Shown: piece after piece, positions 3,943-9,245 of the stretch
Position numbering within the stretch: position 1 is the stretch's first letter
Layout: every line of letters starts with the position of its first letter
Assembly (NCBI GenBank): GCA_048538215.1
Contig: JBLYPV010000001.1
Span: forward strand, 11,495 to 75,494
Direction: 5' to 3'
DNA from: Patescibacteria group bacterium
Lineage (GTDB): Bacteria; Patescibacteriota; Minisyncoccia; Phycocordibacterales; GCA-2747955
Length of the DNA: 64,000 nucleotides
Notes under the pieces: model-generated
The model's database searches: none
Seen by the model: only the letters and a program-made list of their open reading frames with translations
Told to the model about the DNA's origin: nothing
Translations under genes and position numbers: made by a program

Positions 3943-4266
3943 CTACCCATCAAGTGGTGTGGGCATTATCGGCACGAGAGGCCTGGGTGCCTGGCTGATG
4001 CCGAGCCTGTGTAGAGCTTGCTCGGGCGTCCACCCGAGCCCGGCAAGCTCGAGGGCTTTTTTCGCCATTTCCTTGTAGCTCAAGAGCCCAAGCTCTGCCT
4101 CTACATATTGCTCGACCTCGCTCCAGGCGAGCTCAAGAGCCTGCTGTTGGTTTTCAGGGGTCGTTTTGACCTTCGCCCCATCAGCTTGGGGCGAAATCGA
4201 GCCTTGGTAGAGGTGGATTACTTCACCGGAGTCTTTCGTCACGGCACTTTCCTTTCTTTTGCACAA
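3943..4266 (-). CDS. Hypothetical protein, GC-rich composition. The real start is possibly the GTG near 4237.
   Basis: ORF on the minus strand in a locally GC-rich stretch. I judged it more protein-like than the overlapping plus ORF 4018..4311. No recognisable family. Confidence 0.3.
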   Translation of the reverse strand: MCKRKESAVTKDSGEVIHLYQGSISPQADGAKVKTTPENQQQALELAWSEVEQYVEAELGLLSYKEMAKKALELAGLGWTPEQALHRLGISQAPRPLVPIMPTPLDG

Positions 4267-4432: not shown

Positions 4433-4876
4433 TCAATCAATGTCTGGATCGAAGCGATTTGAGTATTCCCACATTTCTTCCCAATCTCCTCTTGGATCAT
4501 AACAAGGCAGATAGGGCTCGTGGTGCAACAAAATCAATTCGATTTCACAAAAGCAATCTGTAGGATGGTAGCTCAGGAGCTCTCCTATGCGATTGCAAAT
4601 TTCCATCACCCCTGATGCAAGGATGACATCAATACTTTTTTGAGGAATATTGAAGTGATAGCGAGCATGTGCATAAGCTGTCATAGTCAAAGCACGAATT
4701 GCTTCGCGTATTTCTCTACGCTTGGCTTCGCGCAAGCTGTATTGGAGACAGGCCTGCCAACAATCTATATCGGGTCCACAGAGGAATTCCCTAATGTATT
4801 GCATAGGCACTATTTGACCAGATCCTTGCCCTTCATAGGGTATATGCATAAAGATCATAATATCCTCCCGGACCAC
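4433..4876 (-). CDS. Hypothetical protein (147 aa)
   Basis: Clean ORF, Cys/His-containing, no family recognised. Confidence 0.4.
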   Translation of the reverse strand: MVREDIMIFMHIPYEGQGSGQIVPMQYIREFLCGPDIDCWQACLQYSLREAKRREIREAIRALTMTAYAHARYHFNIPQKSIDVILASGVMEICNRIGELLSYHPTDCFCEIELILLHHEPYLPCYDPRGDWEEMWEYSNRFDPDID

Positions 4877-5007: not shown

Positions 5008-5157
5008 ATGAAAATTTTCAAATGGCTTGTAAGCGTCCTTCTTTGGGGGGATGCTAAAGATCCTGAAGAAGAGGAGCCGATCGAGCATTTCGAGGATATG
5101 CTCGAGAGGAAAAAAATTACTCCTCAGAACTTTCGCCAACATGAAGGCGAAATCTGA
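5008..5157 (+). CDS. Small protein (49 aa, MKIFKWLVSVLLWGDAKDPEEEEPIEHFEDMLERKKITPQNFRQHEGEI)
   Basis: Strong SD (aaggaga) 6 nt upstream of the ATG. A Rho-independent terminator follows at 5174-5202. It is below the ORF-track length cutoff. The antisense ORF 4978..5232 is probably spurious. Confidence 0.5.
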   Translation: MKIFKWLVSVLLWGDAKDPEEEEPIEHFEDMLERKKITPQNFRQHEGEI

Positions 5158-5173
5158 TGAGAGGAAGCAAGAT

Positions 5174-5202
5174 TGCGCGGTGGAAGCATCGCGCACTTTT
5201 TT
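5174..5202 (+). terminator. Rho-independent terminator (tgcgcg-loop-cgcgca + TTTTTT)
   Basis: GC stem followed by a T6 run, directly after the small ORF 5008..5157. Confidence 0.6.
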
Positions 5203-5524
5203 ATAGTAGAAATTGTCTGAGTCGGGGCACACCCTCCACCTGGCTTCGTTTATCTATCGGTTTGTCGACAGAGCCGGTTAATTATACCTACTGCTTTCGA
5301 TTCTCACGCAAGCAAAAGAGTTTGCTCGTTTCACTTCTACGAATACAAAAGGCACCACATTCGTAAAGTTTTCTCGTAAAGAAATCGGATGTTGCCGCGC
5401 CTTGGCATGACTAGCTCAGATGGGCTTGGTATGTAACCAATTTCTACGACCAAGTCGCTTACATATACTCTCACCAGGCTCGATTCTTAATTTATTGCAT
5501 AAATACAATCAACCACACTTTTTA

Positions 5525-5560
5525 CTTAAAACAAAAGTCGCTCTTTTGAGCGCTTTGTTT
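5525..5560. terminator. Long A/T-flanked palindromic hairpin (aaaacaaaagtcgctc tttt gagcgctttgtttt)
   Basis: ~16-bp stem, nearly perfect. It could act bidirectionally and separates two halves of the ncRNA-rich region. Confidence 0.45.
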
Positions 5561-5774
5561 TGGGGGAAGTAGGGGGAGTCGGTACCAGGTTGCAAAGCGT
5601 CGCTTGCGCTCGCTAAGCACCTCCTACCCGGCCTCGGCTTGCAAGGCACATGGCCGACCGAGTGCCTTGCATATGCCTCCGTCTTTCGATTCCCCACGCA
5701 GGCAAAGCAGTTTATCTGCTCCACTTTCACTAATAAAAATAGCCCCACTATCGTGGAGCTTATTTTTATACTAG

Positions 5775-6214
5775 TGGAAGTGGGGGGAATCGAACCCCCG
5801 TCCACATACGGATATCTCGTGCACATCTACGAATGCTAGTTTATTTATTATCTCAAGATAATTGAGAGCTTCACGCTAGTGTCTATAAAATAAACTAAAC
5901 GATACTAGAGCTAGTCGTAATTTATTTTATATAGAGATCACGACACTTCTCTATACTATCCTTCTTATCTCACAATAGAGGGGGAATGAAGGAATATTCA
6001 CCCGTTCTACCGCCAAGTACGCTCGGGAGTATAAATGCTCAACCGACGGCTTACGCCATTGCGTATACTGGAGCGAGAGAAGCGTATGGGCTAGCCATAG
6101 CTCCTTTCACTTTTGCGACTACGTTTGCACGTAAAAAGTATGGGCCTTTTACAGATCTGCCCAATCTACATCGCATACACGGATATGTTCGTATTGTCAA
6201 AGCCGGTCACTCCC
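5775..6214 (-). ncRNA. ssrA: tmRNA (SsrA), ~440 nt
   Basis: The minus-strand 3' end …GGACGGGGGUUCGAUUCCCCCCACUUCCA matches the canonical tmRNA TΨC arm and acceptor end (compare E. coli GGACGCGGGUUCAACUCCCGCCAGCUCCACCA). The 5' GGGAGUG pairs with the 3' CACUUCC to form the acceptor stem. An internal tag ORF starts at resume codon GCA (…GCA AAA GUG … UAC GCA AUG GCG UAA) and ends …VYAMA*. CCA is not encoded. It is antisense to the spurious ORF 5986..6225. Confidence 0.8.
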
Positions 6215-6527
6215 ATTTTGCCTAAATAGAGTATATCTAGGTAATAATAATTATACCAATTTAATGATTATAAGCAAGTATTTAGTATATGATATACTAT
6301 CGTCAATTGTGAAAACGGAGAGGGATAATGAAAAAGAAAAGGTTCCCAGGACTGACGTTGCCTGTTGTATTGTTTGGGCTATTTATTACATTGATAGCAC
6401 AATGCACAGCTTAGACGTCACATTTTTCTCACGCGGGCGACTGCGTGAGATTTTTTATTGACTTTTTCAAGATGAAGCATATAATGCCCGAAATTTACGC
6501 AAGTGAGACTTAAAAGGAGTATATCAG

Positions 6528-6680
6528 ATGCGGAAAATGTATGATCTTTTACAAAAAATAGATTGGGTGATGGCGCCAATATTCTTGATCATGGTGATGA
6601 TTATGCTCATCATGGTGATCGCCGTCTATAATCAAAACCAAATCGAGCAATCGGAGATGCACATTCCCTGGGCTGATTAA
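6528..6680 (+). CDS. Small membrane protein (50 aa, one TM helix)
   Basis: SD aaaggag upstream. A hydrophobic core (APIFLIMVMIMLIMVIAVY) is present. A GC hairpin with T-run terminator follows at 6694-6730. Confidence 0.45.
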   Translation: MRKMYDLLQKIDWVMAPIFLIMVMIMLIMVIAVYNQNQIEQSEMHIPWAD

Positions 6681-8783: not shown

Positions 8784-9245
8784 TTAACGGAAGCGCACTT
8801 TATGCTCACGAAGTACATCTCGCTCCTGATCTCGCTCTTTGATATCTTCGCGCTTGTCGTGCTTTTTCTTTCCACGCACGAGTGCTAGTTCGAGCTTAAT
8901 TTTGCCATTTGCACGACCAATGGCTTTGGGGACAAGAGTAATTCCTTTATTATGTACGGCTTTTTGAATCTCAATAATTTCTTTTTTGTTTAGCAAAAGT
9001 ATGCGATCACGACGAGGATTACTACTAGGAGAATTTGCCACCTGGTAAGGGGGGATATGGAATTCACGCAGGAGGATAGTATATCTACCCGCTTCTTCTT
9101 GCACGGTGATGTACGCCCCATCCATTGATGGGGTATTTGTTTGTAGAGATTTCGCTTCATCCCCAAGAAGGGAGATGCCCGCCATGTAAGTATCGAGCAC
9201 TTCATAGGAATGATGGAGCTTTTTGTTGCGAGCTACTACTTGCAT
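8784..9245 (-). CDS. smpB: SsrA-binding protein SmpB
   Basis: HSYEVLDTYMAGISLLGDEAKSL…NPRRDRILLLNKKEI…IKLELALVRGKKKHDKRE matches SmpB. It lies ~2.6 kb from the tmRNA. Confidence 0.85.
   Translation of the reverse strand: MQVVARNKKLHHSYEVLDTYMAGISLLGDEAKSLQTNTPSMDGAYITVQEEAGRYTILLREFHIPPYQVANSPSSNPRRDRILLLNKKEIIEIQKAVHNKGITLVPKAIGRANGKIKLELALVRGKKKHDKREDIKERDQERDVLREHKVRFR

Follow-up and report, generated by a model that had tools for sequence, protein, structure and literature searches.

Genomic islands with tyrosine integrases reportedly use the 3' ends of transfer RNA (tRNA) and transfer-messenger RNA (tmRNA) genes as attB, at a T-loop sublocation, as Williams is said to have described in 2002. 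A tRNA/tmRNA-targeting integrative element of this sort is the closest known kind to the element described here, which lies behind the tmRNA gene (ssrA) of a Patescibacteria group bacterium, in a 64-kb window of contig JBLYPV010000001.1 (the window being the whole stretch of DNA analysed, 64,000 nt). About one kilobase of this window probably consists of the tmRNA gene and two successive same-strand insertions of a small non-coding element. We favour the view that the element is non-autonomous, is moved in trans by some factor and restores the gene that it enters, a mechanism that we infer.

Two elements behind the tmRNA gene

On the minus strand, which is that of the tmRNA, the order is tmRNA gene, copy 1 of its 3' end, terminator, element 2, displaced end with CCA, terminator, a 183-nt stretch, element 1, a weak remnant of a still earlier tmRNA end and a terminator shared with a convergent small ORF. 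The features are given below one per line; R1 is the covariance model of the element family, treated in the next section, and ORF stands for open reading frame.

5772..6214, minus: tmRNA gene (ssrA), 443 nt; Rfam RF00023, 87.2 bits, E = 1.9e-32, model positions 1-374
6051..6128, minus: tmRNA tag frame, ANVVAKVKGAMASPYASLAPVYAMA plus stop, 25 aa; resume codon GCA aligned to the Rfam consensus, and translation
5772..5792, minus: copy 1, the proximal direct repeat, i.e. the tmRNA 3' end from T-loop position 56 on, CGATTCCCCCCACTTCCACTA; from the sequence
5732..5771, minus: spacer of element 2, a terminator hairpin (stem 5741-5760) and U-tract, predicted tmRNA terminator; terminator scan and fold
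5563..5731, minus: element 2, younger copy; R1, 104.4 bits, E = 3.9e-30
5721-5730, minus: element 2 acceptor guide, GTGAAAGTGG
5698-5719, minus: element 2 hairpin PH
5687-5695, minus: element 2 T guide, GGGGAATCG
5683-5686, minus: element 2 AAAG
5582-5682, minus: element 2 body, two hairpin arms, including GCAAGGCAC/GTGCCTTGC
5561..5581, minus: copy 3 of element 2, CGACTCCCCCTACTTCCCCCA, a tmRNA 3' end that is displaced and degenerate and has CCA at its end; 17/21 identical
5525..5560, either strand: bidirectional terminator hairpin (stem 5539-5552) right behind the displaced tmRNA end; terminator-like on both strands
5342..5524, minus: 183-nt stretch between the two elements
5206..5341, minus: element 1, older decayed copy; R1, 50.6 bits, E = 2e-13
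5331-5340, minus: element 1 acceptor guide, GTAGAAGTGA
5308-5329, minus: element 1 PH
5298-5305, minus: element 1 T guide
5294-5297, minus: element 1 AAAG
5225-5293, minus: element 1 body
5204-5224, minus: element 1 distal repeat remnant, CGACTCAGACAATTTCTACTA; 14/21 identical, alone not above chance
5174..5195, plus: terminator hairpin of the convergent small ORF 5008-5157, adjoining the oldest tmRNA-end remnant; terminator scan
6230..6259, minus: promoter-like site upstream of the tmRNA, TTGGTA-18-TATACT; consensus scan, sequence match only

The preliminary description, which read the plus strand, reported two related segments of about 85 nt. Their relatedness beyond chance is borne out by blastn within the window (71% identity over 83 nt, 5283-5364 versus 5672-5754, E = 1e-5). 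The similarity continues upstream to about 5222 and about 5610, and the segments are the 5' halves of longer elements on the minus strand, 5563-5731 and 5206-5341; by the covariance model the units in the window measure about 135-170 nt rather than 85. The functional strand is likewise minus, the plus-strand reading of both elements having been set aside because conserved G.U pairs and folding energies (below) favour the minus, tRNA-sense strand. Two is the copy count by blastn and nhmmer, with no third copy anywhere in the 64 kb.

Element 2 scores 104 bits with R1, and its split guide is complementary to copy 1 at 9/9 positions in the T part and 9/10 in the acceptor part, i.e. 18/19 to the tmRNA end; element 1 scores 51 bits, and both its guide and its repeat are degenerate. 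Beyond element 2 the tmRNA end recurs as copy 3, and no other site in the window resembles that end at more than 15/21 positions. Insertion into the tmRNA 3' end, with the 17/21 copy and a terminator displaced, would account for where the two segments lie. Copy 1 was presumably brought in by the element, and the hairpin at 5525-5560 was probably the tmRNA terminator at an earlier time. The two elements are 60% identical over 126 aligned positions. The distal remnant of element 1 ends in ...CUACUA against ...CCACUA of the present tmRNA, a single C-to-U change, and the 8-bp end helix GUAGAAGU/AUUUCUAC is preserved while differing from the present tmRNA end by one double change, G-C to A-U. Element 2 looks recently functional and element 1 looks like its decaying predecessor.

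The 183-nt stretch at 5342-5524 contains the tmRNA-end-like CGATTTCTTTAC, 28 nt upstream of the element 1 guide; its minus strand also carries GAATCGAGCC, and its plus strand carries TAGCTCAGATGGG, similar to a tRNA D-loop. None of the fetched loci resembles the stretch. By eye we took it for a possible third decayed copy, an idea that was dropped when R1 with filters off gave a best score of 1.4 bits.

The bidirectional hairpin reported earlier at 5525-5560 is there as described, and the block at 5561-5675 noted as structured and GC-rich is strongly structured, being the 3' half (body) of element 2. The two hairpins formerly presented as compensated (ctacgaat/attcgtag and gctccac/gtggagc) do not bear that interpretation, because they are not positionally homologous in the alignment and one of them, the real hairpin near element 2, is the tmRNA terminator at 5741-5760; genuine compensation is found elsewhere in the family. 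The Rfam check proposed at that stage assigns only the tmRNA and gives no single known RNA that explains both elements: even at E <= 10, the interval 5100-6350 yields beyond the tmRNA only weak matches over its 3' end and the terminators, far below gathering scores. The earlier suggestions of small RNAs, repeat elements or integration remnants were each partly right, in that the segments belong to a repeated structured family, seemingly inserted at the tmRNA 3' end; independent 85-nt small RNAs they are not, nor the scars of a conventional island.

The tmRNA itself matches the full-length RF00023 model, whose gathering score is 47. Its encoded 3' end is ...CCACUA, without CCA, and its acceptor stem as read from the Rfam alignment (5' GGGAGUG versus 3' CACUUCC) has the alanine identity pair G3.U70. 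At 443 nt it is, as had been claimed, unusually long: the tmRNAs of four related loci measure 372-400 nt, with tags of 11, 17 and 25 aa (three by Rfam, that of L031 by ARAGORN; L031 is 398 nt by Rfam). The tag ANVVAKVKGAMASPYASLAPVYAMA* begins at the resume codon, has a hydrophobic C-terminus and is terminated by a stop; the VYAMA ending stands, and the length, put at about 21 aa before, is 25 aa. Since L031 has a related 25-aa tag, ANSIVAKVVSPYFTADDFKFAFARA, the long tag is a lineage trait rather than an oddity. ARAGORN called no tmRNA in the window, unlike at L031, L051 and L054, where it does call one; the Rfam match and the tag frame lead us to overrule this miss. An smpB gene lies 2.6 kb upstream on the same strand (8784-9245, minus; Pfam SmpB, E = 1.8e-40).

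That the kilobase lacks credible coding is confirmed: its ORFs reach at most 105 aa, and the one of them compared with Pfam, the 45-aa ORF 5337-5474, has no match. The longest, 5509-5826 (minus, 105 aa), was judged spurious, as it lies wholly over the tmRNA 3' end and element 2. Among the flanking ORFs, neither 4433-4876 nor 5008-5157 matches Pfam; for the latter (plus, 49 aa) a Shine-Dalgarno-like sequence was noted, and its terminator is the one at 5174-5195. ORFs 4433-4876 (147 aa) and 3943-4266 (107 aa), both on minus like the tmRNA and without a Pfam family, follow the element array downstream and might be cargo of an older ssrA insertion. On the other side, 6329-6415 (plus) is hydrophobic and is followed by a terminator at 6427-6450, and 6528-6680 (plus, 50 aa) is hydrophobic with no Pfam match.

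Anatomy, guide and fold of the element family

We took the shared core, CTTTCGATT-N2-3-CACGCARGCAAA, as a search motif in a species-representative genome collection, which gave 22 loci. Named Patescibacteria lineages account for 19 of these records (Saccharibacteria, Parcubacteria, Paceibacteria, Minisyncoccia, Nomura-, Yonath-, Vogel- and Campbellbacteria), and three are named only 'bacterium'. A metagenome collection contributed 23 more loci, some of them duplicates. R1 has 147 positions and 49 pairs, its end helix having been added by hand to the RNAalifold result. At E < 1e-12 it detects 49 copies, spread over 35 sources, with every named source genome from Patescibacteria. The family is thus, as far as sampled, confined to Patescibacteria (the candidate phyla radiation, CPR). 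Searches of phage and plasmid collections for the element came back empty. Two viral-contig motif matches were discarded: L024, which lacks the hairpin and lies by eye in G+C-rich coding-like sequence, was judged a chance match, and L025 was assumed to be the same. Rfam 15 holds no family for the element, and full-text literature searches turned up no account of one like it; the family seems to be undescribed.

With few exceptions the motif adjoins the 3' end of a tRNA gene and reads on the strand opposite to it; on the tRNA strand the element is downstream and co-oriented. About 12 genes serve as targets: tRNA-Gly (TCC, GCC, CCC), Pro, Arg, Lys, Leu, Val, Trp, Met and Ala, and the tmRNA, the last recurrently (two copies in the window, and L031 and L027). 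Orphan copies with no adjacent tRNA or tmRNA detected were also seen (L006 4203-4368; L019 6708-6816 and 2858-2991; L004 949-1098); the guide of the L006 orphan matches a tmRNA-type end.

Read along the tRNA strand, the parts of a unit are, in sequence, copy 1, a spacer, an acceptor guide of 10 nt, A, the 9-bp hairpin PH, GU, a T guide of 9 nt, AAAG, the body, and copy 3. Copies 1 and 3 are the last 19 nt of the gene, from T-loop position 56 to position 74. Many spacers (0-70 nt) consist of a terminator hairpin or of either of two short conserved sequences, and the body (50-110 nt) is a three-way junction with two hairpin arms; inserts across the family are 110-210 nt long and contain no ORF. 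Flanking direct repeats of the gene 3' end, by which islands are recognised, are found here at 17/21 in the window, at a perfect 19/19 in eight loci and at 18/19 in one; no more than 100-170 nt separate the perfect repeats. In four or five of 11 clear cases copy 3 runs on into CA, so that it reads ...ACCA, usually with a terminator, and copy 1 never runs on in this way; for this reason we regard copy 3 as the original end of the gene and copy 1 as having come with the insert. One practical caution is that tRNA 3' ends in CPR genomes would often be element-borne and lack CCA.

The two guide halves are jointly the reverse complement of positions 56-74, i.e. of the repeated segment, and PH splits them exactly at the boundary between T-stem and acceptor stem. 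The T guide matches the adjacent gene at 9/9 in about 30 of 45 copies, and the acceptor guide at 10/10 in L008, L020, L023, L031, L047 and L048. As the target changes so does the guide: the guide dinucleotide GA goes with a T-stem CTCCC, GG with CCCCC, GT with CACCC, CG with CCGCC and AA with CTTCT. T-loop variants are tracked too (target/guide CGAAT/GGATTCG, CAAAT/GATTTG, CGAGT/GGACTCG, CGAAC/GGGTTCG). Four full examples are:

tRNA-Arg: guide CAGGATTCG; target T-loop and stem CGAATCCTG
tRNA-Arg: guide CAGGACTCG; target T-loop and stem CGAGTCCTG
tRNA-Pro: guide CCGAGATTTG; target T-loop and stem CAAATCTCGG
tRNA-Lys: guide TAGGGTTCG; target T-loop and stem CGAACCCTA

Where the acceptor stem departs from Watson-Crick pairing, the guide complements the 3' strand: in the window, whose tmRNA has G3.U70, it places A against U70, and in L009, whose tRNA-Arg has a C.A mismatch, it places U against A68. 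Copy 3 is decayed or missing in L005, L008, L009-1518 and element 2 of the window, and the guide still fits copy 1 there. Two simpler identities for the guide were rejected: (i) a T-arm or tRNA pseudogene, since the guide is the complement of the 3' strand and not a copy of the tRNA 5' half, and (ii) a tRNA-like minihelix, since the guide pairs through positions 73-74 and T-loop 56-60, with no unpaired discriminator or CCA.

The RNAalifold consensus of 16 copies has 34 pairs, and 17 of these show compensatory changes. Across the 49 pairs of the R1 alignment, 90% of cells pair, against 69.8% when shuffled and 34-44% with slid partners; the covariation score is 0.47, against 0.15 shuffled and about 0.08 with slid partners; and 44 of the 49 pairs have changes on both sides. 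PH is wholly rewritten in L012, L014 and L015 and is still a hairpin. The second arm has a conserved G.U on the tRNA-sense strand in 25 of 49 sequences, and that strand has the lower folding energy in 25 of 32 bodies (p = 1.6e-5). The G.U pattern leans toward RNA as the active form, rather than folded single-stranded DNA.

Probable insertion and turnover, and competing explanations

The distribution of copies among the loci suggests insertion and turnover. Several copies may occur on one fragment, each behind a different tRNA (four in L009, and two or three each in L005, L012, L013, L014, L015, L016, L018 and L040). Nested or tandem copies are found in the window, L013, L018, L045 and L035, and older copies lie distal to younger ones in the first four of these. 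Behind tRNA-Gly(TCC), L035 has two identical 117-nt units and a remnant in tandem (2448-2787); its relative L007 has one unit and the same remnant, and the downstream gene is offset by exactly 117 nt. In this biased sample, about half the loci have an element at tRNA-Pro and tRNA-Arg(TCG), two genes of the same syntenic cluster. Two L009 copies behind different tRNAs are identical over 90 nt, which points to conversion between copies. Neighbouring genes were judged by eye: they are housekeeping-like (CCA-adding enzyme, YraN-like protein, RNase Y, Mur ligase, protease), and no adjacent recombinase was recognised among them. A CCA-adding-enzyme-like gene (about 500 aa, by eye) lies in the tRNA-Gly/Pro/Arg element cluster of L016, L012, L013, L014, L018 and others, and no CCA is encoded at the element-borne tRNA ends.

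A unit that moves in this way would enter the gene at or across positions 56-74, either by recombination between its own copy of 56-74 and the gene, or by a staggered insertion that duplicates the segment. The host gene would be kept whole by the carried copy of its last 19 or so nucleotides, and its original 3' end with CCA and terminator would be pushed to the far side of the unit; the unit would so gain the gene's promoter upstream, and the old 3' end and terminator downstream. The guide would pair with the displaced old end, closing the fold. Expression might come from riding the tRNA or tmRNA transcript, or from terminator read-through. An enzyme encoded elsewhere would recognise the conserved core, and guide pairing with 56-74 would either set the insertion site or hold the recombination site. 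As one core serves a dozen 19-mers, the moving factor probably reads the core, with pairing supplying the address. The unit appears to be non-autonomous, judging from the lack of an ORF or a promoter-like site within its sequence.

A more specific proposal, which we put forward tentatively and consider somewhat unlikely, is a programmable nucleic-acid-guided insertion system, in which the split 19-nt guide pairs with 56-74 and selects the site for an enzyme acting in trans. The partner strand (the carried or duplicated 3' end) would then pair with the opposite DNA strand, and by rewriting of its guide one core would have been redirected to a dozen or more RNA genes.

Several points weigh against a mobile element. 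No enzyme, excised form, or pair of empty and filled alleles from one population was found, and for that reason mobility is read from the anatomy. Because the loci were gathered with a motif from the element itself, the occupancy figures are biased. Because the covariation alignment follows the model, its pair counts are inflated; the slid control and the rewritten PH hairpins nonetheless speak for a real signal that is not all model fitting. Guide-target mismatches comprise 17 G.U and 27 A.C, with no excess of G.U, a count that leaves the strand undecided. Copying or conversion between inverted repeats, rather than selection for RNA pairing, may maintain the guide match, and a neutral alternative for part of the match is quasi-palindrome correction of guide and copy 1 against each other. 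In the window, a terminator stands between the tmRNA and element 2, and a consensus scan found no promoter-like site on the minus strand over 5200-5770, so that expression of the two copies is doubtful. Finally, conservation of the core across several CPR classes, in syntenic housekeeping tRNA clusters, would also fit an RNA useful to the host.

This last thought leads to a rather improbable but fuller rival, a host-domesticated non-coding RNA, vertically inherited and co-transcribed with the tRNA or tmRNA, that acts in tRNA 3'-end metabolism (processing, quality control, or as a decoy or sponge). A duplicated tRNA 3' end would have supplied the end helix, and element 1 would be a dying paralogue, although its end helix has survived a double change, which speaks for a host function. 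So do the strong structural covariation and the core shared among CPR classes, the common orientation with the tRNA, the many loci that lack a terminator between tRNA and element and have one right after the distal repeat (L016, L022), and the syntenic tRNA-Gly/Pro/Arg cluster near genes that by eye resemble those for CCA-adding enzyme and RNase Y. It is difficult for such an RNA to account for tandem and nested copies, relatives differing by exactly one unit, patchy occupancy at orthologous tRNAs, or about 12 target genes each with a matched guide; degenerate copies are common, at least eight loci have a terminator between tRNA and element, and the displaced CCA-bearing end is a signature of insertion.

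Insertion by ordinary means is the basis of a further rival, in which the elements are scars of integrase-mediated islands or prophages in the tRNA or tmRNA gene, i.e. attL/attR remnants after internal deletion. The 3' ends of these genes are classic island sites with direct repeats, an account of Dehalococcoides includes islands that integrate at ssrA (PMC3146451), and the window does have a displaced tmRNA 3' end. Yet the 49 copies share an interior that is uniformly small, conserved and covarying in structure, not random leftover DNA; perfect repeats stand just 100-170 nt apart; no integrase fragment was recognised by eye near any locus; the phage and plasmid collections gave no match, L024 and L025 being judged chance; and an internal guide complementary to the att core would have no role. 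We regard this explanation as largely refuted and its probability as very small. Equally improbable is an intron in the T-loop, with the tRNA or tmRNA spliced from position 55 to the distal copy (56-74 and CCA) and the guide aligning the 3' exon. CPR bacteria are known for introns in their rRNA genes, which would favour it, as would the CCA and terminator on the distal rather than the proximal copy and the pairing of the guide with the distal copy. The proximal copy, though, already completes the genes, which Rfam and ARAGORN call at full length; guides go on matching this copy where the distal one has decayed (element 2 at 17/21, L005, L008, L009-1518); and no Rfam family other than tmRNA, group I and II introns included, matches the window interval at E <= 10. 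That the two segments are unrelated hairpin-rich intergenic sequence, alike by chance, is refuted: only the low complexity of terminator regions would suggest it, against the blastn result, covariance-model E-values of 4e-30 and 2e-13, and 47 further members.

One neighbour gene was examined as a candidate for the element's own enzyme. L027 has a 79-aa GIY-YIG ORF between tmRNA and element; the candidate was rejected because its homologues in L051, L054 and L052 occur without an R1 element or 3'-end repeat, and for the same reason we take the gene in L027 to be a separate, nested cassette. These genes (L027 721-960, L051 2001-2240, L054 2001-2270, L052 2001-2240; Pfam E = 3e-14) lie 90-180 nt behind the tmRNA (L027, L051, L054) or a tRNA-Pro (L052), co-oriented with it. 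Their leader begins at the RNA gene end (CCACTG CTTCGC..GCTTCGCAGTGC), with repeated CACTGC/GCAGTG. There are 108 clusters of homologues, with identities of 44-77% (56% or more for 103 of the clusters); every named one is from Patescibacteria. This looks like a second, separate cassette using tRNA and tmRNA 3' ends. A more distant GIY-YIG ORF of 91 aa lies directly upstream of the element-bearing tRNA-Gly at L038 989-1264 (also L041 and L042), and is itself variable, being absent from the close relative L040.

CPR bacteria have tiny genomes and few recognised mobile elements. If the element is indeed mobile, they carry a widespread tRNA-gene parasite or commensal of about 150 nt that repairs the gene it enters and apparently carries its own base-pairing address; it would be a compact natural case of sequence-addressed insertion, with guide, target and a dozen retargeting events visible in sequence. 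Annotation pipelines pass over a class of 'partial tRNA' or tmRNA-end repeats and of structured intergenic blocks, which such elements would explain. Even as a host RNA, the family would be an uncatalogued, strongly covarying one of about 50 members.

Comparison with known systems

Bacterial miniature non-autonomous elements include miniature inverted-repeat transposable elements (MITEs), CIMEs, REPINs and RPEs. The present element resembles them in being small, multi-copy, protein-less, structured and presumably moved in trans. Unlike them, it has no fixed terminal inverted repeats, its sole inverted repeat being that of guide versus repeat, which differs for every target; it is strict in target and orientation, and it has a target-matched guide and, at its ends, 19-nt target-derived direct repeats where a MITE has a short target-site duplication.

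Folded single-strand recombination sites are known from the CTX-phi attP(+) hairpin and integron attC, where an inverted copy beside att mimics a double-stranded target. The post-integration junction of att, loop and inverted copy matches the element's copy 1, spacer and guide. Differences are that the element has no shown link to Xer or IntI, that its target is a tRNA end rather than dif or attI, and that its conserved G.U pairs and GA-rich loops suggest RNA, not DNA.

The bridge (seek) RNAs of IS110/IS1111, and the exon-binding and intron-binding sequence (EBS-IBS) pairing of group II introns, are cases in which part of an element is complementary to the insertion target, and as in our family the complementary non-coding sequence changes with the target. 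The family stands apart in that neither a DEDD recombinase nor an intron-encoded protein lies within or next to the element, and in having a contiguous 19-nt guide split by a hairpin instead of two loops or a short EBS, 19-nt direct repeats, no Rfam match to an intron or other family, no intron catalytic core (P3-P9, or domains V/VI) recognised by those models, and a size of 110-170 nt. As to separate target-binding and donor-binding loops like those of bridge RNAs, one guide region is recognised in the element, and donor and target would be identical in sequence. Guided insertion, if proven, would be categorically new, a protein-less guide-plus-cargo unit of roughly 150 nt unlike bridge RNAs, introns or CRISPR-associated transposons.

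Outside bacteria, Dada DNA transposons, which are eukaryotic and encode a transposase, insert into multicopy small-RNA genes such as tRNA genes (PMC8869645). Their specificity, like that of our element, spares single-copy functional genes; unlike the case here, the abstract of that paper reports no guide or RNA fold.

It is the tRNA/tmRNA islands that the element most resembles. Both target the stretch from T-loop to 3' end and supply a replacement 3' end, both displace the original end as a direct repeat, and in both repeated use of one site gives arrays. The element differs from them in measuring 110-200 nt rather than kilobases, with no integrase gene in the insert; in using one conserved interior for about 12 target sequences; and in carrying within itself a reverse complement of the att core together with a covarying single-strand fold.

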